DNA of 61,534 bases. Origin: an uncultured Planctomycetales bacterium. Its GTDB lineage: Bacteria; Planctomycetota; Phycisphaerae; UBA1845; PWPN01. The stretch lies in NCBI GenBank assembly GCA_964615635.1, contig CAZTQK010000001.1, positions 22,790 to 84,323 on the forward strand, read 5' to 3'. Shown here piece by piece: positions 1-38,384 of the stretch. Under the pieces are notes generated by a model. It was given only the letters and a program-made list of their open reading frames with translations. It searched no databases and was not told the origin of the DNA. The position numbers and the translations under genes are program-made. The stretch's first letter is position 1, and each line of letters begins with the position of its first letter.

Positions 1-2201
1 AGCGAGTAGCTAATCGTGGTGGCAGGATTGAAGGGGTTGGGGTAGTTCTGGGACAAAGCGAACAGGTTTGGCAATGCCTCCGGTGGGCTTTCGTCAGCAA
101 GCTTTGCCGAGGCTCCGGTGTTGAAGTGACCGGAAACCATGAAAAGCTCACGTGAAGGGTTGTATCCGGTGTTCATCCACCACCCGTTATATCCTCCGGA
201 CATGGCAAACGATGAGCCTGTACACCTGAAGACATGTAGTCTCACCCCCGTCGAGTCATACATCATGCATACATCAGGCGTTCCGTCACCCGTGAAATCA
301 CCCGAAGCGACATGCAGGATTTTGTCCGCTTCGTAGTTTTCAGGCGGATTCCACCAGATTTGGTAATAGGCGAAGGATGATCCGGTAGAGCGGAAGAAAT
401 GGAGCCGTGTTAAGTGGCCGGCGCCTCCGGACCTGAAGCCCATGTAGTAGACAAGGGCTACATCGTCAATACCGTCATTGTTGAAGTCTCCGGAAACTGT
501 TCCGTGGACCCGGGCTGCTTCGTAGCTGTCAGGAGAACTCCACCAGCCGACTGTTGGGTTAAGTGTGAATGATGAACCTGTGGACTTGAAGACGTGAAGC
601 CGAGTCAGATAACCTTCTCCGGTCGAACGGTATCCCATGTGGTACACGACGCAGATATCGTCAAGACCATTGTCGTCATAGTCGCCTGACGTGAAACCGT
701 ACATGTTGTCACGGTAGTAGCTCATGACGGCATCGGAATCCCACCAGGTTTGCTTCACGAAAGCACTTCCGGTGGAGTAGAAGACATGAATCTGGAGTCT
801 GCTGGACGATTCGGCATAGAGTACCGCCACATCTTCATACTGATCGCTGTTGAAGTACCCGGAAACCATGCCAACCACTTTGGCAGGATCGTACCCCGAA
901 GAGCTAATCCACCAGCCAGTACTTCCGGTCCAGGAAAAACTTGATCCCGTGGAAAGAAACACGTGCAAGCGGCGGGACGCAGGGTAGTCATACATGTTCA
1001 CTACGTCATCAGCACCATCGCCGTTGACGTCGGCAGACACACTGGCGAGGACATCCGAGGAATTGTAGTTCGTGCTCATCCACCAACCGTATTTGCCGGT
1101 GAAATCGAACGAACTTCCGTTTGAGAGGTACATGTGGAACCGACTGGATGTACCGCCATAGTCGTAGAAGGTCGAGATGTCGGCTTTGTTGCCTGGGCCC
1201 GGTGCCGGGTCTTCGACCACATTCACCTGAAAGTGCATCCCGCCCCAGTCTTGAATCCATTCGGCGGAGTTGTGATATGGGCGGAGATACACTCTGTACA
1301 AACCAGGAGTAGCGGTTTCAGGGACCTTCCCCCAGAAGTCAAATAACGCAGCCTGATTGGTGCCAATACCTGATGATGAGGCTCGCACTATCCGTTTCCT
1401 CGTAGTTGGGTCAAGCCAAGCTGGCTTCCCATCGACGGGAAGGAGAAAGCACGAAGCTTCAGCACCTGTAGAATTGCAGGAACGCAATTCGATAGACTGG
1501 TATCCGCCATCGTTCGCCCAGTCGGGCGCGTTGTCGCTACTGGTGTTCGTAAACCAGACCTTGAAATTGCAGGATTGGCCAGGTGTCAGGTCGATTGGTT
1601 CAGTTTCGCCCGCGCTGTTCCATTGACTGGAATACTCGCAGGTCTGACCGCGGAGCCAACCTTGGACGTATAGACTTCCAATTCCTGAGATTGAATAGTG
1701 GCCGTCGTTAACTGTCATGCTGAGAACCAGGGTAGGATTAGTCTCGTGTCGATTCTGGTCGATAATGGAAACTGAATTCTCACCAACTTCAGTGATGATT
1801 CCGACGTGACCATATCCGCTCGGCCCTCCACCGAAGCAGAGAATATCGTTCTCTTTCGGGGCGGTTGTTCCGTCTTGAGCAAAGGCGCGGAGTCCTTTTG
1901 CTTCTGCTGAACCGTAGTACATGTTACCGTTGCCGGTCCAACCGGAAGTCGTGAAGTGCATTGCGTTGCTGTAGTACCTCTTCACGAACTCCACACACTG
2001 GTAGTAACCACAGCCAGAGCCAGTCCAACCTCCATTCGACTTTGCCTCCACACTGCGATAGGACCCTCTGACGCATCCATACTCTCCGGTGGCACTTTCA
2101 CCACAGTCCTGGTAACTTTCGCAGACACCATAGATGCGCGATGGTATTGCCACAAGGAAAGCCACAACGCAGGCTACTAGGACACAATAGAATGTCCTCA
2201 T
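1..2201 (-). CDS. Secreted CHAP-domain peptidase with FG-GAP/VCBS-like repeats and a T9SS C-terminal sorting domain (3' end truncated by the window edge)
   Basis: Not in the ORF track because there is no stop in the window. ATG at 2201-2199 follows GGAGGTG. My manual translation gives a signal peptide MRTFYCVLVACVVAFLVA, a CHAP Cys motif YYQCVEFVKRYY and a His motif YGHVGIITEV. The frame at the window start reads FALSQNYPNPFNPATTISYS (T9SS tail). The start codon and the terminal codons are in the same phase. Confidence 0.8.
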   Translation of the reverse strand, partial: MRTFYCVLVACVVAFLVAIPSRIYGVCESYQDCGESATGEYGCVRGSYRSVEAKSNGGWTGSGCGYYQCVEFVKRYYSNAMHFTTSGWTGNGNMYYGSAEAKGLRAFAQDGTTAPKENDILCFGGGPSGYGHVGIITEVGENSVSIIDQNRHETNPTLVLSMTVNDGHYSISGIGSLYVQGWLRGQTCEYSSQWNSAGETEPIDLTPGQSCNFKVWFTNTSSDNAPDWANDGGYQSIELRSCNSTGAEASCFLLPVDGKPAWLDPTTRKRIVRASSSGIGTNQAALFDFWGKVPETATPGLYRVYLRPYHNSAEWIQDWGGMHFQVNVVEDPAPGPGNKADISTFYDYGGTSSRFHMYLSNGSSFDFTGKYGWWMSTNYNSSDVLASVSADVNGDGADDVVNMYDYPASRRLHVFLSTGSSFSWTGSTGWWISSSGYDPAKVVGMVSGYFNSDQYEDVAVLYAESSSRLQIHVFYSTGSAFVKQTWWDSDAVMSYYRDNMYGFTSGDYDDNGLDDICVVYHMGYRSTGEGYLTRLHVFKSTGSSFTLNPTVGWWSSPDSYEAARVHGTVSGDFNNDGIDDVALVYYMGFRSGGAGHLTRLHFFRSTGSSFAYYQIWWNPPENYEADKILHVASGDFTGDGTPDVCMMYDSTGVRLHVFRCTGSSFAMSGGYNGWWMNTGYNPSRELFMVSGHFNTGASAKLADESPPEALPNLFALSQNYPNPFNPATTISYS

Positions 2202-2276
2202 GATTCACCTCCTCGGCTACATGTTGCCGTTGATTTGTTGGTTTATGATTAAGTTGTTAAAGTGCTGAGAGATTGT

Positions 2277-3128
2277 CTATTCCGCGATGTCGATTGTTGC
2301 CAATACAGCATCGAAGTAATTGACTGCAAAATTAGACGACCGTGGCTGTGCCTGAATGATCATCGTTTTACCTGCGGCCGGCACACAAACAACGGTTTTA
2401 TCTCCCTCGTCGTCCAGATTGTCTGATTCCAAATAGTAGCTAACTAATGCAGAGGTTCTTCCGTCAACCGTCAACGCAAGTTGTTTATCGAAGTTGACAA
2501 AGCTGGGTATGGGATCATCTGAGGAGCCCCACCCATGAAATCTCTTACAGTCCTCGATTGGATCACCTGACAACTCCTGATCGGCCCACCAGATGTTTAT
2601 TGATGGTTCAAGATTTGCATGCCCATTCTCACTCAGGTATAGACCACCAAGTTCTTCATCGATTGTCCAACTGCGCGGATATGAAACTTTGTAGGCTGGC
2701 TCAATGCTTCGAAAGGCCACCAGCGCTGAAGTTGACGAGTCATACGTCTGCCAGCCGGTGGTCTCAATATTGGAGTTTGAGGCAGTATTTGAGTTGTTCC
2801 CGGTCCCATTGGAGTTAAAAGGTCCCGTGTTGGCGTTCCCATTGGTTGGGCTGTTTGTATTCGTAGAACCATTTGTGGTACCCGCGTTATTCGTGTTCGG
2901 TGTGGAATTTGTATTCGAGAAAACGTTCGTGTTCGTTTCAGAGTTGATGTTCGCTGCTGAATTGGCGTTCGAACCCGAATTCACATTCCCGTTCGCGGGG
3001 CCGGTGTCTTGCCCCAGCAAGTACACGGCGTAAGCTCCTGCAGCCAAAATCAGCACAATCACAATGACCCCGAGCACTTGCTTTGCCCGTTTTGTGCCCT
3101 TCTCGGGTGTGTTTTCATATTGATCCAT
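2277..3128 (-). CDS. Membrane-anchored protein with an Asn/Ser/Thr-rich linker and a C-terminal globular domain (paralog of 5799-6542)
   Basis: The ORF track extends to a GTG at 3170. The ATG at 3128 (MDQYENTPEKGTKRAKQ) is the more likely start. One TM helix (VLGVIVIVLILAAGAYAVYLL), then a long N/S/T low-complexity stretch, then a ~170 aa domain. Confidence 0.7.
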   Translation of the reverse strand: MDQYENTPEKGTKRAKQVLGVIVIVLILAAGAYAVYLLGQDTGPANGNVNSGSNANSAANINSETNTNVFSNTNSTPNTNNAGTTNGSTNTNSPTNGNANTGPFNSNGTGNNSNTASNSNIETTGWQTYDSSTSALVAFRSIEPAYKVSYPRSWTIDEELGGLYLSENGHANLEPSINIWWADQELSGDPIEDCKRFHGWGSSDDPIPSFVNFDKQLALTVDGRTSALVSYYLESDNLDDEGDKTVVCVPAAGKTMIIQAQPRSSNFAVNYFDAVLATIDIAE

Positions 3129-3235
3129 AGAGGTAGGATTAGTCGATAATCTGTGCCTGCATCTTGCCACTTTCGGCTCAAATCCGTCAAGGCGACGGCG
3201 CTTCAGTAAGGCGGCAGTACAGTTCCCGAATTCGG

Positions 3236-3271
3236 CAACAACAAAAGCCCCTCCGGATGGTCCGAAGGGGG
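3236..3271 (-). terminator. Rho-independent terminator after the CHAP gene of cassette 2
   Basis: The minus strand reads CCCCTTCGGA-CCA-TCCGGAGGGG (one mismatch) followed by CTTTTGTTGTT, immediately 3' of the stop at 3286. Confidence 0.5.
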
Positions 3272-3285
3272 TAAAGAGTCAAAGT

Positions 3286-5721
3286 CTACTTGAGCAAGAT
3301 CATCTTCCTTGTTTCCACCGCTTCAGGCGTAGAGAGCCTGTAGAGGTAGATTCCGGAAGAGAATCCAACTGATTCCCAGAGTACGGTGTGCTCACCAGCT
3401 GTTTGGTGTTCGTCGACCAGGGTTGCGACTTTCTGGCCGAGGATGTTGAAAACGTCCAGACGGACGTGCGTAGCAGAAGGTAGCGAGTAGCTAATCGTGG
3501 TGGCAGGATTGAAGGGGTTGGGGTAGTTCTGGGACAGAGCGAACTTGCTTGGCACTGTCTCCGGTGGGCTTTCGTCAGCAAGTTTCGGACTGCCTTCAGT
3601 CTCGATGCCCCAGCCATCAAGCCAGGAGTTGTTGTAGTCGGTGCCGTTTGTGGGATTGAAGAAAGGAGGAGGCCCGGCGTTATTGTATGCCACGAACCAG
3701 CGGCCGTACTTTGGCGTATAGGCGATAAGATCGACGTATCCGTCTCCGGTGACGTCCTTTGTAAACGTTTGCCACCCGAGAGTTCCGTCTTCAACTGCCC
3801 ATCCGGTAAGCCAGGCGCCGTTCGCCCCCGCACCGTTCGCTTGGGCAAAGTACCCGTTCCAGTTGTATGCGACACACCACTTACCTTCGGACGGCTTGTA
3901 CACGATGACATCGTCATACGCATCGGATGAGCTCTTGCCGAAAAAGTTCTTCCACGTGGTCGAACTTCCCGTTGCCCACGAATCCAGCCAGACCCCGCCT
4001 GACGGAGCGAAGCTCGCACCCGACCGGTACGCTCCGAACCAGCGACCCGTTCCCGGGTGGTAACAGCCGATGTCATGATATCCATCAGTGTTCAATCTGC
4101 CAGTGAACGGCCAATAGGTACCGTACGAACCGTCTCCCCAGTCATCGAGCCAAAGACCTTGGCTTGCGAATGACTTGGAGCCGGAATTGTAGGCGACATA
4201 CCATCTGCCAGTAACCGGATGGAATACGGCGATGTCAAACAATGCGTCACCGTTGTACTTGCCGGTCATTGGGATGTAATCGGTGGAACTGCCGGTTGCC
4301 CAGCCGTCGATCCACGAGCTATTGGCATACGGACCGGAAGCAGGGACAAAGTGGTGCGTCGAACTGTACTGGTTGTATGCGACAAACCAACGACCCGTCC
4401 CCGGGTGGTAGACACAGATCTCGTCGTACCCGTCACCAGAGAAATCAGCCACGACAAGCTTGTATCCACCGCCCCCAGCCCAGTTTTCAAGCCAGGGCTC
4501 GGGTTCGGGTATGTATCGCTTGTTTGGCAGGTCGCACATGGCAACATACCAGGTACCGGTCGTAGTTTCCCATAACCCAACGTCACCCTTGCCATCGCCA
4601 TTGAAATCACCGGTGAACGCCACGAAGTTTTCGCCCGAAAGTTCCGGATCCACCACATTCACCTGAAAGCTCAAACCTCCCCAGCCATCCGATATGAATC
4701 CGTGAGTGGCGTGGTGAAGGCTGAAATATACAGGTACAGGACTCGAAGTCGGGCTCGCTCCCGAAGGAATATACCCATCGAACTCGAACGTGGCAATGAC
4801 ACCCGGAGGGACACTCGCCTCGTTAAACGACGTGACGTGTGCGTGGTCCGCATCGGGCATCCAGCCAAGTGAGGAATTCCACGGGTTGTTCAAGAAGCTC
4901 TGTCCGTTAATCGTGCTCCCATTGGACATGCAGGACATCAGTCCAACCCAGTTCGGATCAGACTGATTCTTCGACCACGTGAAGTTGCAGAGGTTCTTGT
5001 ATCTGACCTTAAAGCGTTTGGTCGGCCCACCTGCCGTCATGGTTGTTTGGTTTGTCAGCTCGTTGTTCACGAACTGCGCTCCACCTTCTTGAGAAGTTGG
5101 GAGGGCAATTTTGTAGATTGGTTGCGGACCTATGTAGTTTGGGTCACGGAGCCAACCTTGAGTCGTATAGCTCTGTCCAATGGACTGGATGCTATATTTC
5201 CCGACGCCATCCACGTATAGGTTGCGTTCCAATTCAGCGGAGATATTGCTTCTGTTTTGGTCGATAATAACCACCTTCATTGCGTTGAGATCAACGCTTT
5301 TGATGATTGCGACATGACCGTAAGTATTGCCGCTTTGACAGTAAATATCTCCCGCAGCCGGTGGGACAAAGGATTCACCGTTGGCGTATTGATAGAGACC
5401 GTCATTGTTGTGCCAAGTGGAGAATGCACTGACTGCGTAGCCCGGACTACCAAGAGAACTCAGGGCGTTGTCTACTTCCTCGTCATAGAAGCGTTTTACG
5501 AATTCTACGCATTGGTAGTCGCCACATGCGGTGGCCGTCCACCCGCCATTGGAGTACGCTGTGATTCCTTGAAATGATCCGAGTGGACATTCGTAATTGC
5601 CTGACGACCACTCTCCGTTAGCGCCGCACCCCTCATCAAAGTAACTTCTGGGGCATTCTGCGCTTAAGCTGCCTGAAAGTGCGGTAAGCAACAAGCCGCA
5701 CAGCATTGACATAACTCTCAT
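3286..5721 (-). CDS. Secreted CHAP-domain peptidase with six FG-GAP/VCBS-like repeats and a T9SS (Por) C-terminal sorting domain
   Basis: 811 aa ORF. Signal peptide MRVMSMLCGLLLTALSGSLSA. CHAP motifs YQCVEFVKRFY and YGHVAIIKSV. Repeats of the type DFNGDGKGDVGLW / DFSGDGYDEICVYHPGTGRWFVAY occur six times. The tail is SQNYPNPFNPATTISYSL...GIYLYRL...KMILLK. Confidence 0.9.
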   Translation of the reverse strand: MRVMSMLCGLLLTALSGSLSAECPRSYFDEGCGANGEWSSGNYECPLGSFQGITAYSNGGWTATACGDYQCVEFVKRFYDEEVDNALSSLGSPGYAVSAFSTWHNNDGLYQYANGESFVPPAAGDIYCQSGNTYGHVAIIKSVDLNAMKVVIIDQNRSNISAELERNLYVDGVGKYSIQSIGQSYTTQGWLRDPNYIGPQPIYKIALPTSQEGGAQFVNNELTNQTTMTAGGPTKRFKVRYKNLCNFTWSKNQSDPNWVGLMSCMSNGSTINGQSFLNNPWNSSLGWMPDADHAHVTSFNEASVPPGVIATFEFDGYIPSGASPTSSPVPVYFSLHHATHGFISDGWGGLSFQVNVVDPELSGENFVAFTGDFNGDGKGDVGLWETTTGTWYVAMCDLPNKRYIPEPEPWLENWAGGGGYKLVVADFSGDGYDEICVYHPGTGRWFVAYNQYSSTHHFVPASGPYANSSWIDGWATGSSTDYIPMTGKYNGDALFDIAVFHPVTGRWYVAYNSGSKSFASQGLWLDDWGDGSYGTYWPFTGRLNTDGYHDIGCYHPGTGRWFGAYRSGASFAPSGGVWLDSWATGSSTTWKNFFGKSSSDAYDDVIVYKPSEGKWCVAYNWNGYFAQANGAGANGAWLTGWAVEDGTLGWQTFTKDVTGDGYVDLIAYTPKYGRWFVAYNNAGPPPFFNPTNGTDYNNSWLDGWGIETEGSPKLADESPPETVPSKFALSQNYPNPFNPATTISYSLPSATHVRLDVFNILGQKVATLVDEHQTAGEHTVLWESVGFSSGIYLYRLSTPEAVETRKMILLK

Positions 5722-5798
5722 GGGTAACCTCCTCTAGAGACTGTTTGGATGTTTATTGTGATTCAGTTGTAATGAACGATTTGTGTCTACTGCTATGT

Positions 5799-6542
5799 CT
5801 ATTTCAAGAACGTGAGTGATTCTACTACGGAGCGAACCAACGCCAATTCGTCTGAAAGGTCGGTCTGCGCCCTTAGGTCGTTGTAGGTATCGTTATCCGA
5901 AAGCGGATATCGTACGGCGTACTCGGCATAGATCTCATGCGAGCCAATCTTGGGGAACACATTACCCGAGGTTCCTAAGTACCATTCTTTAACCTTGTCG
6001 CTATGGACCAAGATCGTTGCCGCGACGTTGGTGTCTTGTATGCTTACACTTGATGAGTTTTCATACGTGTAACCGTCTCCCTGATCCGCGAAGAACAGTG
6101 TTCGGGATGTAATTGCGGAGTCATCATCTGCATCTCGCACTCCGAGCGTGAGAACTCGGTCCTTGAGCGTATTCGTTATTGCCACATAGTTGACTCCACT
6201 GGAATGTTCCTCTACTGACCAGCCATTCGGGATGGTAAGTGAAATGCCGAGATCACTATTGCTGTATGGTTGCCAAGCGCCAGCATTTGTATTTCCTAAC
6301 GTATTCGTGATGGCGGCATTCGTATTGCTGGCTTGTCGGTTCGTATTCCTTTCAGAGTTGATGTTCGCTGTCGTATTCGCGTTCGATCCCGAATTGACAT
6401 TTCCGTTCGCGGGGTTGTTGTCTTGCCCAAGCAAGTACACGGCGTAAACCGCCGCGGACACGGCGAGCACAATCACAATGACCCCGAGCACTTGCTTTGC
6501 CCGTTTTGTGCCCGGTTGGGGCGTGTTTTCATTTTGATCCAT
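5799..6542 (-). CDS. Membrane-anchored Asn-rich protein (paralog of 2277-3128)
   Basis: Same N-terminus (MDQNENTPQPGTKRAKQVLGVIVIVL) and N-rich linker as 2277-3128, with a different C-terminal domain. ATG at 6542 is preferred over the GTG at 6584. Confidence 0.7.
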   Translation of the reverse strand: MDQNENTPQPGTKRAKQVLGVIVIVLAVSAAVYAVYLLGQDNNPANGNVNSGSNANTTANINSERNTNRQASNTNAAITNTLGNTNAGAWQPYSNSDLGISLTIPNGWSVEEHSSGVNYVAITNTLKDRVLTLGVRDADDDSAITSRTLFFADQGDGYTYENSSSVSIQDTNVAATILVHSDKVKEWYLGTSGNVFPKIGSHEIYAEYAVRYPLSDNDTYNDLRAQTDLSDELALVRSVVESLTFLK

Positions 6543-6787
6543 AGAGGTAGGATTAGTCGATAATCTGTGCCTGCATCTTGCCACTTCCGGCGTTAATTCG
6601 TCAAGGCGACGGCGCTGTTTCGAGGCGGCTGAAAAGTTGCCTAGATCGGCAATTGATTGCGTGTGCGACTCCCTTAGGATCGGAGGGCAACCAGCTTCGC
6701 GCGTGCCAGTGGTTTGGCATCCGGAGCAGGCAAACGCCCTTTCCCAATCAAATCAACCGATCCAAAAACATCAGAAAGGAGAGCCGC

Positions 6788-7438
6788 ATGAGAAACGGCA
6801 ATCTCGTGACAACGATCGAGATTAAGGACAAGCAGGGCCGGGTCGTGGCGACCAAAGAGGTTGTCACGTACGCTGGCCTTCTTAATCGAGCCCACCAGGA
6901 GGGCCTGAAAAAGGTAATAACCAGGCTGGTTCAAGCGCCTTCCAAGGACAACGAAATGACGGCGATTTCCATGGCAAAAGTGGTGACGGACAGAGGGGTG
7001 TTCATCGAGTGCGGCGACGCCAATCCCGGCAACGTCAACTCGAAGATCATTCCCCACATTATCCGTATGTCAGTCACCCGGGCGAAGGCTCGTGCCATGC
7101 GAGACGCGGTCAATATCGGGGTCATCTCGCTTGAGGAACTGGCAGAGGAATTCGGGAACGGAAACGGCAATGGAAACGGCAACGGGAGCGGAACTCCGTT
7201 ATCCACAGACCGGGCCAAGCCCGCGACCGATTCCGACAAACCGATGTCGGTGTCCCAGAGGAAATACTTGTTCAGGCTTTTGGCTGAAAGGGGCAAAACC
7301 GAAGAGGAAGCCGAGAGCTGGCTTCGTGCCGCCCTTGAAGTCGGAAGCCTCGACCATGTCACCAGGAAGACGGCCAGTGACATGATCAACCACCTGCTTG
7401 AAACCGCGAACCTGCCCGAAGCACAGGCGAAGGCATAG
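6788..7438 (+). CDS. Hypothetical protein, possibly a DNA-binding/single-strand-annealing-like leading-region protein with a (Gly-Asn)n linker
   Basis: ATG at 6788 is preceded by AAAGGAG; the track ORF from 6578 is an N-terminal over-extension. The motif IIRMSVTRAKARAMRDAVNIG loosely resembles the conserved helix of Rad52/Sak-type annealases (weak). GNGNGNGNGNGSG linker. Confidence 0.55.
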   Translation: MRNGNLVTTIEIKDKQGRVVATKEVVTYAGLLNRAHQEGLKKVITRLVQAPSKDNEMTAISMAKVVTDRGVFIECGDANPGNVNSKIIPHIIRMSVTRAKARAMRDAVNIGVISLEELAEEFGNGNGNGNGNGSGTPLSTDRAKPATDSDKPMSVSQRKYLFRLLAERGKTEEEAESWLRAALEVGSLDHVTRKTASDMINHLLETANLPEAQAKA

Positions 7439-20827: not shown

Positions 20828-22033
20828 ATGCAGCAAATCGAAAAGGTCTTGGCCATTGCCAACAAACACAACCTCTACCCGAAACCGCCTATTGTCCGGG
20901 TCGCTCCGTCCGAGCCTTTGATTGAACTCGACGGACAAACCTATTTCAATTTCGCATCTAACAACTACCTTGGCCTTGCCAACCACCCCGAAATCAAACA
21001 AGCAGTTATTAAGGGCATAGAGCAGTACGGCGTGGGAACGTGCGCTTCCAGGCTTGCCATAGGGAACACGGAGGCGCACTTGACACTCGAACGCAGGCTC
21101 AGCGAGTTTCTGGGAGTGGAAGACGTGGTAGTCACTTCAAGCGGATACCTCACCAACGTTGGCGTGATACCGACCGTCATCGACCGGGCATTTCTATTTG
21201 AGCACAAGGCAAAGGAGAAGATCGACTTCGGCGTCATCTTCAGCGACGAGAAAAACCATGCCAGCATCGTGGACGGCATCCGGCTGTCCCGGGCCGAGCG
21301 GGTCGTATACGAGCACTGCAATATGGAAGACCTTGACCGCAAGATGAAGCCCTACCGCAACCGGAGAAAGCTGATTGTCTCCGATGCCGTCTTCAGCGTG
21401 GACGGCGACGTTGCGCCGCTCAACGGGCTCGTTGCCCTTAAGGAGCGGTACGGCGCGTTGCTGATGCTCGACGAAGCCCATTCGTTCGGTACGCTCGGAA
21501 CCAAAGGAAAGGGAATCGCGGAATATTATGGAGTTGATCCCAGAGCCATCGACATAAATATGGGGACGCTAAGTAAGGCGCTTGGCTCCGTCGGCGGATA
21601 CATTGCTGGGAGCAAAGCACTTATAGATTTCGTCCGGGCGGCGGCTTCTCCTTTTGTCTTGACGGCCGGTCCCATGGCTCCCGCTCTGGCTCTGGGCGCG
21701 GCAAAGGCGGTAGACATTATCGACAGCCGCCCCGAGATCGTGGAGCGTCTGCGGTACAACGTCTCGTACGTGAAAAAGGGGCTTGACGCACTCGGCATAC
21801 CGTACCGGTCCCACAGCCAGATCATCATGATACCGGTCGGGGACGAAGAAAAGCTCGTATCAATGTCTCATGACCTCAAGGAACAGGGCGTGTTGGTTTC
21901 CGGCATGCGTTGGCCCGCAGCTCCGTGGGGCGACTCCCGCATCAGAGTTTCCGTCATAGCAACCCACACGGACAAACAGATGGATGCCCTGCTCAAGGCG
22001 CTCGGAGAGATCAAGAACCGCATAACCGCCTAA
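20828..22033 (+). CDS. PLP-dependent alpha-oxoamine synthase family enzyme (BioF / Kbl / SPT / CqsA family)
   Basis: NNYLGLANHP, DEAHSFGTLG, and the PLP-lysine motif GTLSKALGSVGGY. 401 aa. Confidence 0.85.
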   Translation: MQQIEKVLAIANKHNLYPKPPIVRVAPSEPLIELDGQTYFNFASNNYLGLANHPEIKQAVIKGIEQYGVGTCASRLAIGNTEAHLTLERRLSEFLGVEDVVVTSSGYLTNVGVIPTVIDRAFLFEHKAKEKIDFGVIFSDEKNHASIVDGIRLSRAERVVYEHCNMEDLDRKMKPYRNRRKLIVSDAVFSVDGDVAPLNGLVALKERYGALLMLDEAHSFGTLGTKGKGIAEYYGVDPRAIDINMGTLSKALGSVGGYIAGSKALIDFVRAAASPFVLTAGPMAPALALGAAKAVDIIDSRPEIVERLRYNVSYVKKGLDALGIPYRSHSQIIMIPVGDEEKLVSMSHDLKEQGVLVSGMRWPAAPWGDSRIRVSVIATHTDKQMDALLKALGEIKNRITA

Positions 22034-22037
22034 GCGT

Positions 22038-24191
22038 ATGGTCGCGGTGTCGATCGCACTGGTTGCCATTCTCAGTCTCACGCTCGGCGTTCTCTCGCTG
22101 CGCGGAAGGGATCGCGTCAGGCTCACGTTCAGCATCTTCTCATTCATAGTCGCAGCCTGGGTTCTGGTCAACTTCGTATTCCAAGTTACGGGTGACGACG
22201 CATTAGTCCCCAGTTTCTACGCCTTGGGTGCACTAGCAATCTGCTCAGGTCTGATTTTCTCATTCTACTTTCTTTTCGAGCAAGTCCACCCGCTGGTTAC
22301 GATTTCAGTCTCGCTTCTTGGTCTCATCAACTTTGCCCTGTCCCTGTTTTCGGACCTGGTCATCAGACGTGTTCTCAAAGTGTATGCAACCGGCTATGAG
22401 GCTGAAACCGGGCCGTACTTTTTGGGGTATTCCCTTTTCATCGTTGCCGGAGTCCTGGCTTTCTTTGTCGTCATGTCATACCAGCGACGGCGGTCCGAGG
22501 GTATCAAACGCAACCAGATCAGCTGGATCATGGCGGGCTTCGGCGCCTTCGGCCTCGTCACGGCAGTCGTAAGCTTCATCCTGCCGCTTTTTGGGGTGTG
22601 GAACCTGACCTCCTTTGACAGCCCGAGCGCGATCTTTTTCGTTTTGGCGTCCTTTTACGCCATTACCCGGTACCGCCTTTTCGATCTTCGCATCGTCGTC
22701 AGGAAGTCAGTCTTCTATCTCATGCTCGCGGTCTTCGTTTTCGTTGTCTACTACCTCAACGTCTATCTGGACGAGAACGTGTTCGGCGGCCAGTATACGG
22801 TCGGCGCGTACCTGTCTGCCCTGGTCATCGCGCCGTTGTTCCTCTATGCATTCAGCGCCGTGAGCAAGTTCCTGCAAAAGGTGGTAAATAAGTACTTCTT
22901 CACCAGCCTTTATGACCCGCAGGCGACTATCAAAGAGTTCGCGAGCAGGATTTCCCAGACTATCAGGCTCGACGAGGTGACGGCAGTCATACTCGACACG
23001 ATCCAGAATACGCTCCGGTCAGATGCCGTGGCGCTCGTTCTTAAAGAGAAACCCGACAAGAACCGTTTTGCGGTGGTACAGACAAGGCAGTTCGATGCGG
23101 CAAGCCTTGAAACGCTTAATGCCCGCGAACCCTTCAGGGACTACGTGATGCCAAGCCGCCAGCCTGTCATCGTTGAGGAGGCGGCGGCCGGGCAACGGGG
23201 GACTCCGGAACTTCGAAACGCGTTTACATCGCTAAAACACTCGGGTATGGAAGTTCTGCTACCGCTGAATGTGAAAGACAGCCTCATCGGCGTGGTAGTC
23301 ATAGGTCGCAAGGCTACCAAGGAGGCGTACACCAAAGAGGACATCGAGCTTTTGGGAACACTTGCCAACCAGGCGTCCGTTGCGGTCCAAAACGCCCGTC
23401 TCTACAACTCCATGGAAGAGATCGTTGCAGAGCAGACGCGGGATATAAAGGAAAAGAACTTGCACTTGGAAGAACTCCTGAAGATGAAGTCCGAATTCCT
23501 TTCAATCGCGTCCCACCAGTTGCGGACACCATTGACGGCAATCCGGGGCCTTTTGTCGATGCAGGCTGACGGAGATCTCGACAGGCTTCCGGAAGACCAG
23601 CGACGGCAAGAACAACGCCACATGCTTGCCGCGGCAGACCACCTGAACAACATAGTAAACGACCTGCTTGACGCCATGGAGCTTGAGGGCGGCCAGACGG
23701 CAGTGAACTTCGCTCCGGTCGACCTTGGGGCACTTATCGCGGAGGCGATAGGGGAACTGAAGCCGGATTTCGACAAGAAAGGTCTGAGCATTACCTTTGA
23801 AAAGCCTGCCCAGCCAGTCCCGGCCGTACCCGGGGAAACAAAATACCTGCGGGAGGCAGTCATGGACGTGATCGACAATGCGGAGAAGTATACCAACAAG
23901 GGCGGAGTAACGATCAGCCTTTCGAGCGACGGCGCGAACGCGGCAGTCACGGTCAAGGACACCGGCATCGGAATACCGAAATCCGACTTTCCGAGGCTGT
24001 TCAAAAAGTTTTCCCGGGGCGAGCGATCTGCGTTCCAGCACGCCAACGGCTCTGGCCTTGGGCTCTTTATTATCCGCAACATTATGAACCGGCACCACGG
24101 CGACGTGCGGATCGAAAGCGAAGGCGAGGGCAAGGGAACTACCGTCACTCTTACCGTGCCGTTGAAGCAGCCCAAAGTCGCGCGTAACTGA
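22038..24191 (+). CDS. Sensor histidine kinase (N-terminal multi-TM 7TM-type sensor, GAF, HisKA, HATPase_c)
   Basis: About 8 hydrophobic helices in the first 300 aa. H-box FLSIASHQLRTPLTAI, N-box VIDNAEKYT, G1 VKDTGIGIP, G2 GSGLGLFI. Confidence 0.9.
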   Translation: MVAVSIALVAILSLTLGVLSLRGRDRVRLTFSIFSFIVAAWVLVNFVFQVTGDDALVPSFYALGALAICSGLIFSFYFLFEQVHPLVTISVSLLGLINFALSLFSDLVIRRVLKVYATGYEAETGPYFLGYSLFIVAGVLAFFVVMSYQRRRSEGIKRNQISWIMAGFGAFGLVTAVVSFILPLFGVWNLTSFDSPSAIFFVLASFYAITRYRLFDLRIVVRKSVFYLMLAVFVFVVYYLNVYLDENVFGGQYTVGAYLSALVIAPLFLYAFSAVSKFLQKVVNKYFFTSLYDPQATIKEFASRISQTIRLDEVTAVILDTIQNTLRSDAVALVLKEKPDKNRFAVVQTRQFDAASLETLNAREPFRDYVMPSRQPVIVEEAAAGQRGTPELRNAFTSLKHSGMEVLLPLNVKDSLIGVVVIGRKATKEAYTKEDIELLGTLANQASVAVQNARLYNSMEEIVAEQTRDIKEKNLHLEELLKMKSEFLSIASHQLRTPLTAIRGLLSMQADGDLDRLPEDQRRQEQRHMLAAADHLNNIVNDLLDAMELEGGQTAVNFAPVDLGALIAEAIGELKPDFDKKGLSITFEKPAQPVPAVPGETKYLREAVMDVIDNAEKYTNKGGVTISLSSDGANAAVTVKDTGIGIPKSDFPRLFKKFSRGERSAFQHANGSGLGLFIIRNIMNRHHGDVRIESEGEGKGTTVTLTVPLKQPKVARN

Positions 24192-30273: not shown

Positions 30274-32112
30274 ATGAAACGACTCATTCTCGTGTTGGCA
30301 GGCACGGCGATTGGAACTACATTAGTTTTGTCGTGCGGTGGCGACAAGGCTAGCAAGCCCACTGAACCTGCGGAAGACACAACCGCACCGACGATTGTCG
30401 CGACTTCGCCGACGTCGAACGCTACGAACGTTCCAATTTCGACGTCCATCACCGCCACGTTTTCCGAAGCGATTAACTCTACAACGGTTACCACCACATC
30501 CTTCACACTTTCGTCAGGGATTACGGGAACGGTCGTTTACAGCGACAAGGTTGCCACATTCACTCCAACAACTTCCTTGGCCGCTGGCACACAATACACG
30601 GCGACGTTATCGACGGCCATAAAGGATCAGTCGGGGAATCCGTTGTCCAGCACCTATTCATGGAATTTTACCACAGTTGTTACTCCGGGTGACAGCGTGC
30701 CGCCAGCTACGATCACCGACCTACAGATACTCGATGTCACTGCACATTACGCCATTTTGTCATGGACCATGCCAGGTGATGACGGCATGACTGGCACTGC
30801 TTCAGTGTATGTGATCAAGTACAACACAGTCCCGATCGACGCATCAAACTGGGACGCGTCCGTTCAGTATGGCGGCTCCACATCGCTCAAAGTAGCTGGA
30901 AGTATCGAAATAGATACCGTGAAGAGCCTCGAGGAGAACTCGGAGTACTACTTTGCCATCAGAGTCAGGGACGATGCCAGCAACTGGTCCAGAGTGTCCA
31001 ACAGTCCTGCCCAATCAACTCTGGTCGGCGGATTCCCGTTTGGAATCTACTCAGATTATCAAGTTGGCGACGCAAACACATTCATTTCATCGATCGATGT
31101 CGCCGACATAGACGATGATGGTGACCCCGACATCCTCGTTGGAGACGGACACTGCCACCAGGCAGTATACGCCGGAATCAACAACGGTACGGGGATGATC
31201 TCATTTTCGAAGGTGTTGGATCTCTACGACTCAAATCCATGTAACCCCAGCACAATCCATACGGTACAAGTAAAAGCATCCAAAGGTATCGCCAGCGCCG
31301 CGAATTACACCAGTATAGTCGCTTCTTATGCCAACCCTGATGGCGTGCACATATTCGAGAATCGAAAAGGTGACCTGGACTCCTTGGTGGGTTACATCTA
31401 CGGTCCCTATAATTCGCAAATGGATCGAACCCCGACTCTCTTAGCGCTTGCCGATATGGACGGTGACTTCGATACTGATATTGTTATTGCTGGTGCGGGT
31501 TCGCCTAACATAGAGTGGTTGCTTAATGATGATTATGGGCGCTACTTCACCAACGGCCCAGGGACGATTTCGATTATAGGCACTCCTGTTGGCATCGCTC
31601 TTGGCGATTACGACTTGGATGGATACGCAGACATTGCCGTCGTCGCATCCGAGCCACCCCTGTTCTATGTCTTCGCGACCAATCTGTTTGTGCCAGTCCA
31701 GCCACTGGTCGGTCAGCCCACTAGCGTTTCAGTTGCTGATCTTGACGGTGAGACCGGGACGGACCTTGTCGTGACCACTTACGATAGCGTATATATATTT
31801 TTGAGTCAGGCTGGGTCTTTCTCTTCACATCAGAGTTTCTATCTTCCGTCTAGTGGAGCCGTCTGCGCCGATTTCGATCTGGACGGTGACGAAGATATAT
31901 TTGTTGGAATCGCAAATGGACTTTACTTCATCAAGAACATGGGGGGCGGTCAGTTTCAACGGGCAGACCGCTTAGACGGATATGCTCAAATCTTCTCTCC
32001 CAAGATGATCAAAGCTGCTGACTTCGATCTTGACGGCGACCCTGACATTCTCTTTGTAACCCAGACTGGCCGTTTGTATCGGTTCACGAATTATTGGCAG
32101 GAAGAACATTAG
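30274..32112 (+). CDS. Lipoprotein with Ig-like/FN3-like domains and FG-GAP/VCBS repeats
   Basis: Lipobox LVLSCGG. SbsA-Ig-like segment (APTIVATSPTSNATNVPISTSITATFSEAI). Repeats DIDDDGDPDILVG, ADMDGDFDTDIVIAG, GDYDLDGYADIAV, ADLDGETGTDLVV, ADFDLDGDEDIFVG, ADFDLDGDPDILFV. Confidence 0.8.
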   Translation: MKRLILVLAGTAIGTTLVLSCGGDKASKPTEPAEDTTAPTIVATSPTSNATNVPISTSITATFSEAINSTTVTTTSFTLSSGITGTVVYSDKVATFTPTTSLAAGTQYTATLSTAIKDQSGNPLSSTYSWNFTTVVTPGDSVPPATITDLQILDVTAHYAILSWTMPGDDGMTGTASVYVIKYNTVPIDASNWDASVQYGGSTSLKVAGSIEIDTVKSLEENSEYYFAIRVRDDASNWSRVSNSPAQSTLVGGFPFGIYSDYQVGDANTFISSIDVADIDDDGDPDILVGDGHCHQAVYAGINNGTGMISFSKVLDLYDSNPCNPSTIHTVQVKASKGIASAANYTSIVASYANPDGVHIFENRKGDLDSLVGYIYGPYNSQMDRTPTLLALADMDGDFDTDIVIAGAGSPNIEWLLNDDYGRYFTNGPGTISIIGTPVGIALGDYDLDGYADIAVVASEPPLFYVFATNLFVPVQPLVGQPTSVSVADLDGETGTDLVVTTYDSVYIFLSQAGSFSSHQSFYLPSSGAVCADFDLDGDEDIFVGIANGLYFIKNMGGGQFQRADRLDGYAQIFSPKMIKAADFDLDGDPDILFVTQTGRLYRFTNYWQEEH

Positions 32113-36603: not shown

Positions 36604-36732
36604 CAATACCGCGTAAAGCGGTATTGAATCGCCTTCAGTACCTTTTCGTAATCCTGTTTGAACTTTGGAGTTACCGGTTGGGGGGTGTAAAGTCCGGGAA
36701 AACAGCCGATATACAGGGAGTATACAGCCGAT
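36604..36732. promoter_or_regulatory. Inverted- and direct-repeat cluster in the divergent intergenic region (candidate operator or oriT)
   Basis: Perfect 9 bp inverted repeat CAATACCGC-GTAAA-GCGGTATTG (36604-36626). Direct repeats ACAGCCGAT at 36702 and 36724 flank TATAC/GTATA. Confidence 0.3.
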
Positions 36733-36758
36733 TAGACAGGCTGGTTTTTGGGGAATTC

Positions 36759-38384
36759 ATGGATACAGTCGGCATCATACTGATTCTAGTCATTGGCGGG
36801 GGAATCGCCCTTTGGTACCAGACAAAAGTTTCTGAACGGAAACGAAGGGAAGCCCGCCGAGCCGAAGAATTCGAGCGGGAGCGTCTGGCTGAATGCGAGG
36901 AGGTAGTACGCTACTTCGCCAACTCATACGGCTACCTGGCCCGGGCCGTCATCAGCCGTGACGAACTTGCAGAACAAATCGACGCCGGGGTCACCGCCGA
37001 AGAGCTTCGGGATTTCATTTCAAGCCGGATGATCAATGTAGACGGGCTAGAGCTCGGCGATCATGGAAGCGGATTGCCGGTGATCCTTCCGGACGAGTAC
37101 CGGGATAAGCACCTCTACGTGGTCGGAAAGTCCGGCTACGGCAAAACAAATTTCCTCCGGTATTTGATCCTCCAGGACCTGTCACGGGGAAATGGCATCG
37201 GCTTGCTGGCTCCTGAAATGGAGATGCTCACCGAGGAGATCCTCCCGTTCATCCCCGAAGACCGGGTCGAGGATGTCATTTATTTCAACCCCAAAGACCT
37301 CGAGTTTCCGGTTGTCCTGAACCCCTTGTATTTGGAAGAGGGAGAGGACATTGACCTGCACGTGGACGAGACCTTCACCGTCCTGCAGCGGGTAGTGGGG
37401 GACGGCGGCCCGAGGATGGACGAGATTCTTCGACACAGCCTCTACGCCCTGACCGAGCGGCAGGGATCGACCCTCATGGACTTCGAGCCGCTTCTTGACC
37501 GCCATGACGACACCTTGCGGAAGGAAATCGTCCGAACCACCGAAGACGAGCAGACAAAGAGGTTTTTCGAGCATACCTACCCGTTGCTGCCGAAAGACGC
37601 ACACTTCCCAGTGATCAACCGGATTTCCCGGATTGTCCGTGGCAAATACGTCCGGAATTGCCTTTGTCCGCCAAGACGGTCATCGATGAATCCGGAAGAG
37701 GTCTCAAGGCGGTTGCTTAATATTCGACGCGCGATGGACGAGGGGAAGATTCTGCTCTTTAACCTGTCGGACGGTATCTTGGGAACGGTCGCGAGCCAGC
37801 TTATCGGCCAGTTAATCGTGGCGAAATATCAGACTGCTACCATGAGCCGCGCCGACACGTCGAAAGGTGGGCGGCGGCCGCACTTCCTGTACCTGGACGA
37901 ATTCCAGAATTTCTGCGGCATTGCCCAGCAGTCGTACGAGAAGATTCTCTCACGAGCACGCAAGTACAAACTTGGATTGATTCTTGCCCATCAGCAGACG
38001 CGGCAGGTACCGCTGGAATTGTATCGCGAAATTCTGGGTAACGTTTCGACGATCGTGAGCTTCCAGGTTGCCCAGGCCGATGCCGGCAGGCTCGGACCGG
38101 AGTTCATCAACCAATATGACTTCGAAGTGGAATCTTTGCCGAGAGAGGAATTGCTCCAACTCGGCGTCGGGGAAGCCTATTGCAGGATCGGCAAAAACAC
38201 GTTCCCGATGTGGGTGCCGAAGGTCGACGCAGAACCGGATTTCGACCGGGCCGAGGAAGTAATTGAATTCTCGCGCAAGGCTTATGGCATTCCCCGCACG
38301 CCTAAGGCAGCGGATGAGCGGTCCGCAAGGCAAACCGCAGACGATGATCCTCTCGCTGACCTCGATCCGGACGAGGTGTTCTAA
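36759..38384 (+). CDS. TraD/VirD4-like coupling-protein-type ATPase (T4CP-like) with an N-terminal TM anchor
   Basis: ATG at 36759 gives MDTVGIILILVIGGGIALWY (TM). Walker A VVGKSGYGKTNFL, Walker B FLYLDEFQNF, ILAHQQTRQV. Confidence 0.7.
   Translation: MDTVGIILILVIGGGIALWYQTKVSERKRREARRAEEFERERLAECEEVVRYFANSYGYLARAVISRDELAEQIDAGVTAEELRDFISSRMINVDGLELGDHGSGLPVILPDEYRDKHLYVVGKSGYGKTNFLRYLILQDLSRGNGIGLLAPEMEMLTEEILPFIPEDRVEDVIYFNPKDLEFPVVLNPLYLEEGEDIDLHVDETFTVLQRVVGDGGPRMDEILRHSLYALTERQGSTLMDFEPLLDRHDDTLRKEIVRTTEDEQTKRFFEHTYPLLPKDAHFPVINRISRIVRGKYVRNCLCPPRRSSMNPEEVSRRLLNIRRAMDEGKILLFNLSDGILGTVASQLIGQLIVAKYQTATMSRADTSKGGRRPHFLYLDEFQNFCGIAQQSYEKILSRARKYKLGLILAHQQTRQVPLELYREILGNVSTIVSFQVAQADAGRLGPEFINQYDFEVESLPREELLQLGVGEAYCRIGKNTFPMWVPKVDAEPDFDRAEEVIEFSRKAYGIPRTPKAADERSARQTADDDPLADLDPDEVF

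Follow-up and report, generated by a model that had tools for sequence, protein, structure and literature searches.

A small membrane-anchored protein and a large CHAP-family hydrolase, encoded side by side in two successive copies whose ends are nearly the same and whose centers differ strongly, raise the question of what such a pair does and how it came to be patterned in this manner. The locus in question lies at the left end of a 61,534-nucleotide stretch of DNA from an uncultured Planctomycetales bacterium, here termed the window and corresponding to C1:22790-84323, with contig C1 belonging to a 6.44-Mb, 638-contig bin (G000). Examination of this locus and its relatives revealed that gene conversion keeps the two ends of the cassette, namely, a 5' module (promoter, 5' untranslated region (UTR), transmembrane helix and linker) and a 3' module (linker, tail and terminator), alike within a genome, as if serving as an 'address'. 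The payload lying between them, comprising the partner domain together with the enzyme, changes hands as a single block; across genomes, its enzyme is a CHAP protein of type A or B, one of a second CHAP type, or an M23 peptidase.

Two tandem cassettes with constant ends and a diverged core

Two tandem, self-contained and apparently independently transcribed units lie on the minus strand within positions 1-6638, each consisting of a promoter/5'UTR, a gene for the small protein (hereafter the partner), a gene for the CHAP enzyme and a terminator. Unit 2 (U2; small2 and CHAP2) is found upstream of unit 1 (U1; small1 and CHAP1). The features of the two units are listed below in the direction of transcription, with T9SS denoting the type IX secretion system.

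6543-6638, minus strand: conserved promoter/5'UTR of unit 2, part of the 5' repeat at 6339-6638
5799-6542, minus strand: small2, tethered partner of unit 2 (247 aa)
6514-6533, minus strand: gene-conversion tract of 20 nt
6491-6429, minus strand: small2 transmembrane helix (aa 18-38)
6428-6282, minus strand: small2 linker (aa 39-87; 49 residues)
6281-5802, minus strand: diverged 160-aa C-terminal domain of small2 (aa 88-247)
3286-5721, minus strand: CHAP2, hydrolase gene of unit 2 (811 aa)
5721-5659, minus strand: predicted CHAP2 signal peptide (aa 1-21)
5658-5143, minus strand: CHAP domain of CHAP2 (aa 22-193)
5142-4651, minus strand: NBR1-like domain of CHAP2 (aa 194-357)
4650-3565, minus strand: FG-GAP repeats of CHAP2 (aa 358-719)
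3564-3289, minus strand: T9SS type A tail of CHAP2 (aa 720-811)
3270-3248, minus strand: intrinsic terminator 3' of CHAP2 (10-bp stem, T run)
3129-3224, minus strand: conserved promoter/5'UTR of unit 1 with a TTGACG -35-like box, part of the 5' repeat at 2925-3224
2277-3128, minus strand: small1, tethered partner of unit 1 (284 codons from the ATG, i.e., 283 aa and a stop; alternative GTG start at 3170)
aa 1-17 of small1, minus strand: Lys/Arg-rich N-terminus, predicted to be cytoplasmic
3077-3015, minus strand: small1 transmembrane helix (aa 18-38)
3014-2760, minus strand: Asn/Ser/Thr-rich linker of small1 (aa 39-123; 85 residues)
2759-2280, minus strand: small1 domain modeled as a PsbP/Mog1 fold (aa 124-283), with two invariant Cys
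2202-2276, minus strand: intergenic spacer of unit 1, in frame with small1, with a GAGGAGG ribosome-binding site (RBS) ahead of the CHAP1 ATG
3-2201, minus strand: open reading frame (ORF) of CHAP1, hydrolase gene of unit 1 (797 aa in full, the tail running on left of the window)
2201-2127, minus strand: predicted CHAP1 signal peptide (aa 1-25)
2126-1647, minus strand: glutathionylspermidine (Gsp) amidase-like CHAP domain of CHAP1 (aa ~26-185)
1646-1215, minus strand: NBR1/FW-like beta-sandwich of CHAP1 (aa ~186-329)
1214-84, minus strand: FG-GAP repeats of CHAP1, about seven (aa ~330-706)
83-1, minus strand: start of the T9SS type A tail of CHAP1, the remainder lying at C1:22497-22689
1-104, no strand assigned: copy 1 of the 3' conserved module (pre-tail linker and T9SS tail), the homology running over a scaffold gap up to the terminator

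All of the elements of the anatomy given in a preliminary description of this DNA were found, be it as ORFs, as Pfam or NCBIfam domains or as a terminator, and a matching terminator hairpin follows CHAP1 left of the window. The near-identical unit ends mentioned in the same description proved to be real and larger than first reported, with the 5' repeat (2925-3224 versus 6339-6638) being 85% identical over 300 nt and the 3' repeat (1-104 versus 3482-3585) being 93% identical over 104 nt. Global alignment of the whole units yielded a step profile, with 83-87% identity in the first 300 nt, only 41-63% identity, with many gaps and hence near random, across a core of ~3.1 kb, and 82-98% identity in the last ~380 nt. 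This bears out the claim that the C-terminal domain of the small protein and the repeat region of the CHAP protein differ strongly between the copies. The conserved first 300 nt correspond to the promoter/5'UTR, the N-terminus of the small protein, its transmembrane helix and the start of the linker, and the conserved last ~380 nt to the pre-tail linker, the T9SS tail and the terminator; both breakpoints between conserved and diverged regions sit in low-complexity linkers. At the protein level, small1 and small2 are 73% identical over the first 101 aa and share no BLAST similarity beyond this point, and CHAP1 and CHAP2 are ~29-34% identical overall, with tails that are 89% identical.

A 100-N scaffold gap at C1:22690-22789, directly left of the window, falls inside the CHAP1 T9SS tail, i.e., within the inter-unit repeat. 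Comparison with unit 2, as well as a metagenome contig (L095) that reads straight across, revealed that the flanks of the gap abut, with zero missing bases. As such, CHAP1 is intact, having 797 aa and its own tail and terminator. In addition, independent metagenome contigs contain unit 2 with its flank (L092 and L093; 99.8-99.9% identity) and unit 1 (L095; 99.97%). Because both units are thus reproduced at 99.8-99.97% and the gap is read through, the possibility that the duplication is an assembly artefact was ruled out. Other metagenome assemblies, like that containing the window, break within the shared unit ends. In one further contig (L094; Logan SRR11235434), the CHAP2 tail, the terminator and a unit-1-type UTR are joined directly to small2; this join probably arose when assembly at k=31 switched paths within the shared repeat, the alternative being a unit 2-unit 2 arrangement, and was set aside as evidence. 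The public ENA contig L095 begins with an Illumina adapter remnant (L095:1-21; AGACGTGTGCTCTTCCGATCT). Additional units further to the left, for which the preliminary description had suggested looking, were not found, with tblastn detecting only two units in the assembly.

A sigma-70 scan of the UTR detected no promoter above chance, and the exact conserved 5'UTR pattern found no match in public metagenome-contig and viral-contig collections. The possibility of a riboswitch or leader RNA in the window 5'UTRs was dropped, given how a scan of positions 1-7000 against Rfam at the E-value threshold gave no match and folding of the two UTRs was not unusual (z +0.1 and +0.9).

The partner proteins and the hydrolases

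Both small proteins comprise a short Lys/Arg-rich N-terminus, one 21-residue hydrophobic helix, an Asn/Ser/Thr-rich linker and a 160-residue domain, a sequence layout that predicts an N-in topology with the C-terminal domain facing the periplasm. Neither protein matched a Pfam family, a PHROG or an NCBIfam model above cut-off, and a strict regular expression for the partner motif recovered small1 only across the bin. Searching 1.84 billion representative proteins with a profile of the small1 domain identified 20 relatives, all presenting a transmembrane helix, an Asn-rich linker and the domain. Two Cys are invariant across this family, which fits an oxidizing, extracytoplasmic compartment.

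AlphaFold2, provided with an alignment containing 15 relatives, modeled the small1 domain with a predicted local distance difference test score (pLDDT) of 91.8 and a predicted template-modeling score (pTM) of 0.89. When this model was compared with the PDB using Foldseek, PsbP ranked first (probability 1.0, TM ~0.6), followed by Tsi3, an immunity protein against a secreted muramidase (4luq_C, E 6e-4, TMt 0.58), LpqN, DcrB and SciW/EagT6. The modeled domain can be assigned confidently to the PsbP/Mog1 (DUF1795-like) alpha-beta-alpha sandwich fold. The likeness of Tsi3 to PsbP/Mog1 was pointed out by those who solved its crystal structure (PMC3792639), and PsbP/Mog1-like adaptor genes have been described beside the toxins of type VI secretion systems (T6SS; Zhang et al., 2012; PMC3482391). 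The Pfam family PsbP_2 (PF18933) gave no match at E<=1 for either window partner; sub-threshold matches were seen in relatives (E 1e-4 to 6e-3), and the partner L100c1 has a recorded PsbP_2 match. Direct comparison of the small1 and small2 domains detected no similarity by BLAST and a probability of only 17% by hhalign, limited to an N-terminal hairpin, and searching a word-indexed protein database with the small2 C-terminal domain returned small2 alone. The small2 domain appears linked to the PsbP-like family by transitive similarity only, via a chain of domain-length BLAST matches (U2-L010, 2.5e-35; L010-L102, 1e-11; L102-U1, 1e-4; L102-L100c1, 3e-4).

In the enzymes, Pfam and NCBIfam models identified CHAP, FG-GAP and Por_Secre_tail (TIGR04183) domains. 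The CHAP model (PF05257) scored 50.6 bits in CHAP1 and 34.7 bits in CHAP2 (cut-off, 26), and the sorting domain (TIGR04183/PF18962) scored 39.1 bits in CHAP2 (cut-off, 23), with both tails being recovered in a genome-wide search. Inspection revealed Sec-type signal peptides in both enzymes (MRTFYCVLVACVVAFLVAIPSRIYG/V and MRVMSMLCGLLLTALSGSLSA/E). Alignment of CHAP1, CHAP2 and the Eisenbacteria enzyme of locus L001 showed C69, H132 and D148/N150 to be invariant, with the Cys lying in the motif YQCVEF, the His in GHVGII and the Asp/Asn in IDQN. The catalytic Cys and His, on whose presence the preliminary description had relied, are hence both conserved. The domain that follows CHAP resembles the NBR1 FW beta-sandwich (TMt 0.70), and the CHAP domains present weak matches to phage endolysin PHROGs. 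With an intact Cys-His-Asp triad, the enzymes are predicted to be Sec-exported cell-wall hydrolases; the endolysin matches and the alternation with M23 peptidases in related cassettes hint, indirectly, that they may act on peptidoglycan.

In sequence (E 7.6e-9) as well as in fold (TMt 0.60-0.64), the CHAP domain has its nearest solved relative in the amidase domain of Escherichia coli glutathionylspermidine synthetase/amidase, with the catalytic Cys aligning with Cys59 and the catalytic His likewise aligned. The third catalytic position is Asp in the window enzymes, as opposed to Glu in Gsp amidase. Moreover, the E. coli enzyme resides in the cytoplasm, forms one protein with a synthetase and has a polyamine conjugate as its substrate. 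The window enzymes, in contrast, are predicted to be exported and combine the CHAP domain with NBR1-like, FG-GAP and tail modules, and in related cassettes their place may be taken by M23 peptidases. A holin/endolysin lysis module was rejected as an identity for the pair, since the enzyme carries a Sec signal and a secretion tail, and since the partner is a bitopic protein of 250-280 aa with a folded outer domain and no PHROG match.

Linkage of partner and hydrolase, and exchange of payloads

To describe relatives of the pair, small1-like partners are referred to as type A and small2-like ones as type B, with CHAP clades A and B being defined from a tree of CHAP domains. In all eight instances in which a type A relative had usable genomic context, the partner precedes a CHAP gene on the same strand, usually one with FG-GAP repeats and a tail. 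The type A loci are L001/L007 (from a Candidatus Eisenbacteria metagenome-assembled genome (MAG), which holds the closest cassette), L008, L087, L088, L090, L097 and L098, together with unit 1. The linkage of partner and CHAP genes, on which the preliminary description turned, hence holds elsewhere. Among 185,579 species genomes, the best matches to the CHAP and mid domains come from several phyla and are all preceded by a protein with a transmembrane helix, a linker and the motif 'W..Y....YP..W'; more distant Bacteroidota CHAP proteins of ~200 aa have no such upstream partner. In small genomes of the Patescibacteria type, the partner-CHAP pair occurs without a T9SS tail. Overall, the family is sporadic and rare, being known from poorly studied lineages, namely, the Eisenbacteria MAG, Patescibacteria-labeled MAGs and the island in the present bin.

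In addition to such pairs, some membrane-tethered proteins, located next to cassettes or away from them, contain between two and four PsbP-like domains in tandem, or one such domain and no adjacent hydrolase (L088:742-2388, L103:5914-6576, P0019 and P0021). These may be orphan or multi-specific partners.

Evidence for recombination came from several sources. The window differs from L092/L093 at six positions in 5,290 nt, all within 6514-6533; at each of the six, L092/L093 have the allele found in unit 1. Since an assembler working at k=119-127 would have had to switch paths twice within ~130 nt, an artefact is unlikely to account for this conversion tract. In contig L006, the same divergent neighbor gene that lies upstream of unit 2 and the 5' module are present (blastn, 87% over 471 nt), and the N-terminal region of the small protein is 82% identical; these are then followed by a third, unrelated-looking partner domain and an M23 peptidase. 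The Eisenbacteria enzyme is a mosaic, resembling CHAP1 in the CHAP (50%) and mid (62%) domains, lying nearer to CHAP2 in the repeat region (36% versus 24%), and having a tail that is like neither (26%).

Arrays of such cassettes were also found. A 35.6-kb Joint Genome Institute (JGI) contig (L100) holds four tandem cassettes with conserved ends, in the following order.

First: partner and M23 peptidase
Second: partner and an enzyme with the second CHAP type, FG-GAP repeats and a tail
Third: orphan two-domain partner
Fourth: partner and an enzyme with a clade B CHAP domain and a tail

A 96-nt 5'UTR is present three times in this contig at 93% identity (L100:277-372, 1907-2002 and 6426-6521), and the tails are 91% alike. 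Contig C5 of genome G004 carries three dispersed cassettes (M23; second CHAP type; CHAP with LamG), whose partners have N-termini in common and whose tails hardly differ. Together, the conversion tract, the presence of a different cassette at the same site and these two sets of cassettes substantiate the earlier proposal that recombination lies behind the diversification. All of the cassette enzymes found belong to wall-hydrolase families, be it CHAP or M23.

In the repeated 5'UTR of L100, folding yields a long hairpin with UUUU behind it (-39.8 kcal/mol, z -3.1), with nothing comparable being seen in the window UTRs. On the basis of this predicted fold, the hairpin may be a leader attenuator.

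The role of the tethered partner and its genomic setting

As to what the pair does, the likeliest proposal, for which the scales stand about level, is that the partner binds the neighboring hydrolase in the periplasm and so protects the producer during two-step export. According to this scheme, the product of the first gene would be a bitopic inner-membrane protein that presents a PsbP/Mog1-fold domain to the periplasm on a long Asn-rich linker, and that of the second a Sec-exported wall hydrolase with a CHAP domain, an NBR1-like domain, an FG-GAP propeller and a T9SS-type C-terminal domain. The tethered domain, acting as immunity factor or holdase, would keep the hydrolase off the producer's own wall, and the enzyme would then be exported or displayed so as to lyse the peptidoglycan of other cells. 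Immunity is suggested by the topology of the partner, the precedent of the Tsi3 fold, the strict linkage, payloads that are wall hydrolases only, the orphan partner of L100, and the extent of the variable block, which takes in exactly the specific portions of the two genes. Somewhat less surely, the cassettes may represent a hitherto undescribed, phylum-crossing class of polymorphic bacteriolysin/immunity modules, in which an exported CHAP or M23 hydrolase and a tethered PsbP-fold immunity protein are swapped jointly.

Several observations weigh against protection by the partner or against export of the enzyme. The partner gene lies upstream of the enzyme gene, and immunity genes are usually located 3' of their toxin. 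A free hydrolase could not cross the outer membrane of a diderm target. The closest solved relative of the CHAP domain, the E. coli Gsp amidase, is no wall hydrolase. Trees of the partner and CHAP domains do not mirror each other: CHAP2, the neighbor of a type B partner, clusters in the CHAP tree with L088, L097 and L100c4, all of which have type A partners. Type A partners occur with CHAP clade A at five loci and with clade B at three, and type B partners are found with CHAP-B-like domains, that of U2 lying in clade B and that of L010 lying near it without being resolved in the tree. Co-variation of the partner (Spearman rho) reached 0.26 with CHAP and 0.41 with the mid domain, values confounded by phylogeny. 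A fusion reading through from small1 to CHAP1 (small1 domain, 26-codon spacer and CHAP1 residues 1-330, with stops as Gly; 4 paired and 16 unpaired rows) was modeled with a pTM of 0.56 and pLDDT values of ~90 and ~85 for the two domains, such that each domain folds but their packing is not predicted with confidence, a point of little weight given the shallow alignment and the lack of predicted aligned error values. With respect to export, the bin, which is 70% complete and in which C1 perhaps derives from a second organism, gave no match to SprA_N, PorV or GldM, markers readily detected in a Chryseobacterium control (1e-155, 1e-121 and 5e-30, respectively), and contains only four tail domains; Chryseobacterium has 109, and the Eisenbacteria MAG, where SprA-like and PorV-like genes are found, has at least 148. 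Tail-bearing cassettes are also present in small genomes lacking these three markers.

As such, the two functional claims of the preliminary description stood in part. For the partner as immunity factor, the periplasm-facing topology, the Tsi3-like fold and the wall-hydrolase payloads speak in favor and the lack of strict co-variation against, and the role itself is one that we infer. For the enzymes as T9SS-sorted proteins, a tail domain scoring above threshold was confirmed, whereas the host bin gave no matches to T9SS core genes.

No described system of this composition was found in the literature, the closest precedents being Tse3-Tsi3, polymorphic toxin loci, TANFOR toxins and bacteriolysins. 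As in Tse3-Tsi3 (and Tae-Tai), a wall hydrolase gene lies beside that of a small periplasm-facing protein, which in Tsi3 adopts a PsbP/Mog1-like beta-sandwich (PMC3792639). The window, however, offers no T6SS context, its enzymes bear a Sec signal and a T9SS-type tail, predictive of two-step export rather than injection, and its partners are encoded upstream, are tethered by a transmembrane helix and a long Asn-rich linker, and share no sequence similarity with Tsi3. Bacteriolysins, i.e., class III bacteriocins such as lysostaphin with Lif(Epr) and zoocin A with Zif, are likewise secreted M23 or CHAP hydrolases encoded on mobile DNA with a linked self-protection gene. In contrast to what is proposed here, their immunity relies on FemABX-like cross-bridge modification and not on a binding protein, their producers are monoderm, and they do not form arrays with conserved ends.

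Polymorphic toxins, such as those of contact-dependent inhibition (CDI) and Rhs systems (PMC3482391), and TANFOR toxins (PMC7073777) similarly have a delivery portion that stays constant, a toxic portion that varies and a cognate gene alongside, exchange cassettes by recombination and occur as tandem or orphan modules on mobile DNA. Indeed, a conserved adjacent pair, a constant delivery module with a recombining payload, and arrays and orphans were all encountered here. Unlike in polymorphic toxins, both ends of the window cassette are constant, with the variable block spanning the 3' part of the first gene and most of the second; the toxin domain occupies the N-terminus and the delivery tag the C-terminus; the partner gene comes first and has its own constant N-terminal module; and the payloads are large wall hydrolases rather than small C-terminal toxin tips. 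TANFOR toxins have been proposed to be T9SS substrates, and whether T9SS cargo takes part in bacterial competition was raised as an open question (PMC7073777).

If the partner is an immunity factor, then the cassette would encode a wall-hydrolase weapon that is secreted in two steps, along with a tethered antidote of a new kind, and would lend support to the still hypothetical role of T9SS cargo in competition (PMC7073777). That some genomes contain the tail domain and no T9SS markers is a puzzle; were the cassettes indeed polymorphic bacteriolysin/immunity modules, the domain would have to serve in another way as well, one independent of the T9SS. Because the ends are constant and the variable block crosses the gene boundary, the layout holds cognate partners together when cassettes are exchanged, and it may help in spotting similar systems. 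The enzymes also represent a diverse, naturally modular set of predicted lytic domains of possible practical use.

Other roles for the partner are suggested by two further groups of proteins. Eag (DUF1795) proteins, such as SciW and EagT6, share the PsbP/Mog1-like fold and are encoded immediately upstream of their cognate effector. The lipase foldases Lif (LipH/LimA) consist of an N-terminal anchor, a variable linker and a periplasmic domain, are encoded beside a two-step-secreted enzyme and are specific for that neighbor. As the main rival to protection, it is accordingly conceivable, if rather unlikely, that the partner is a private foldase, chaperone or export adaptor that assists the folding of its Cys-rich, multi-domain neighbor or handover at the outer membrane without inhibiting it. 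The anchor-linker-domain layout beside such an enzyme, a fold family that includes the Eag/SciW effector chaperones encoded directly upstream of effectors (PMC3482391), and the corresponding upstream position of the partner gene, as with eag genes, would all be accommodated, and loose co-variation is easier to explain if a chaperone reads a general feature of its client. Yet, the payloads are all wall hydrolases and not assorted cargo, the orphan two-domain partner of L100 has no enzyme behind it, and the pair also exists without a T9SS tail. Furthermore, the likeness to either group is one of logic only: Lif is all-alpha-helical, is encoded downstream of the lipase, serves as an activator and shows no sequence or fold similarity to the partner, and Eag proteins work in the cytoplasm, where they cover the transmembrane helices of effectors that are to be loaded into the T6SS, whereas the window partner is predicted to be membrane-anchored with its domain outside the cytoplasm, its enzyme carries a cleavable signal peptide and no T6SS genes lie nearby.

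With regard to setting, the cassettes occupy the left end of an island of ~46 kb that has a GC content of ~50%, as compared to 66-69% in the flanks, and that ends at a tRNA-Arg gene. The island carries genes for DUF932, AbiEi/AbiEii, type I restriction-modification and GmrSD proteins, as well as serine and tyrosine recombinases, two Replic_Relax and two TraG-like proteins. Just downstream of CHAP1, C1:21102-22385 (minus strand) encodes a 427-aa ATPase that is a 32%-identical paralogue of the TraG-like protein at 36624-38384 (plus strand). These paralogues, together with two Replic_Relax genes and two recombinases, give the island the appearance of two mobilizable elements combined. Sister cassettes elsewhere adjoin large serine recombinases or integrases and RuvC-like genes.

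Such surroundings, on elements with Replic_Relax and TraG-like genes or beside recombinases and RuvC-like genes, could also suit a controlled autolysin that acts on the wall of the element's host for growth, transfer or release, with the partner serving as activator or positioner (cf. ActH-LytH and SpdC-SagB); the absence of T9SS markers from the host bin would then mean that the enzyme may stay periplasmic. This explanation is deemed improbable, since polymorphism, tandem arrays and payload swapping are unexpected for housekeeping remodeling, the FG-GAP propeller and the secretion/anchoring tail point outward, and the family is sporadic and rare.

The GC contrast could instead mark the cassettes as decaying or silent passengers from a T9SS-bearing donor that the present host cannot export, with gene adjacency being purely historical. 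The four tail domains in a bin without T9SS core markers, together with the finding of the closest cassette in a MAG with SprA-like and PorV-like genes and at least 148 tails, are in line with this view. It too is given little credence, in light of four intact ORFs with start codons, RBS, catalytic residues and terminators, and of units that are 99.8-99.97% identical in independent metagenomes. Nor is the bin a firm guide to the host, being 70% complete and with C1 possibly coming from another organism. Indeed, the non-island flanks of C1 are GC outliers (66-69%, as compared to a bin contig median of 61.8% and a 99th percentile of 64.4%), and the GlnS encoded by C1 is 79% identical over the N-terminal 118 aa, and 76% over 314 aa, to a second copy in the bin (C561) and 64% identical to that of the Eisenbacteria MAG. 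C1 may accordingly belong to a second, related organism.

The other two tail proteins of the bin are encoded at C38:3645-7283 (1213 aa) and C328:1360-3948 (863 aa), the former in a lower-GC stretch (53-58%) of its contig, such that it may have been horizontally acquired. A second FG-GAP protein of the island (30274-32112, plus strand; 612 aa) combines Big_5, fn3 and FG-GAP domains, with no tail or catalytic domain being detected. Finally, positions 20828-24191 of the window, on the island, hold a module comprising an alpha-oxoamine-synthase-type aminotransferase and a 7TM-GAF histidine kinase with receivers. A module of the same type lies directly upstream of the Eisenbacteria partner/CHAP cassette (L001:3433-7886), and a 7TM kinase follows the L100 cassette array (L100:9930-11176). 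This aminotransferase/kinase module may regulate the cassettes.

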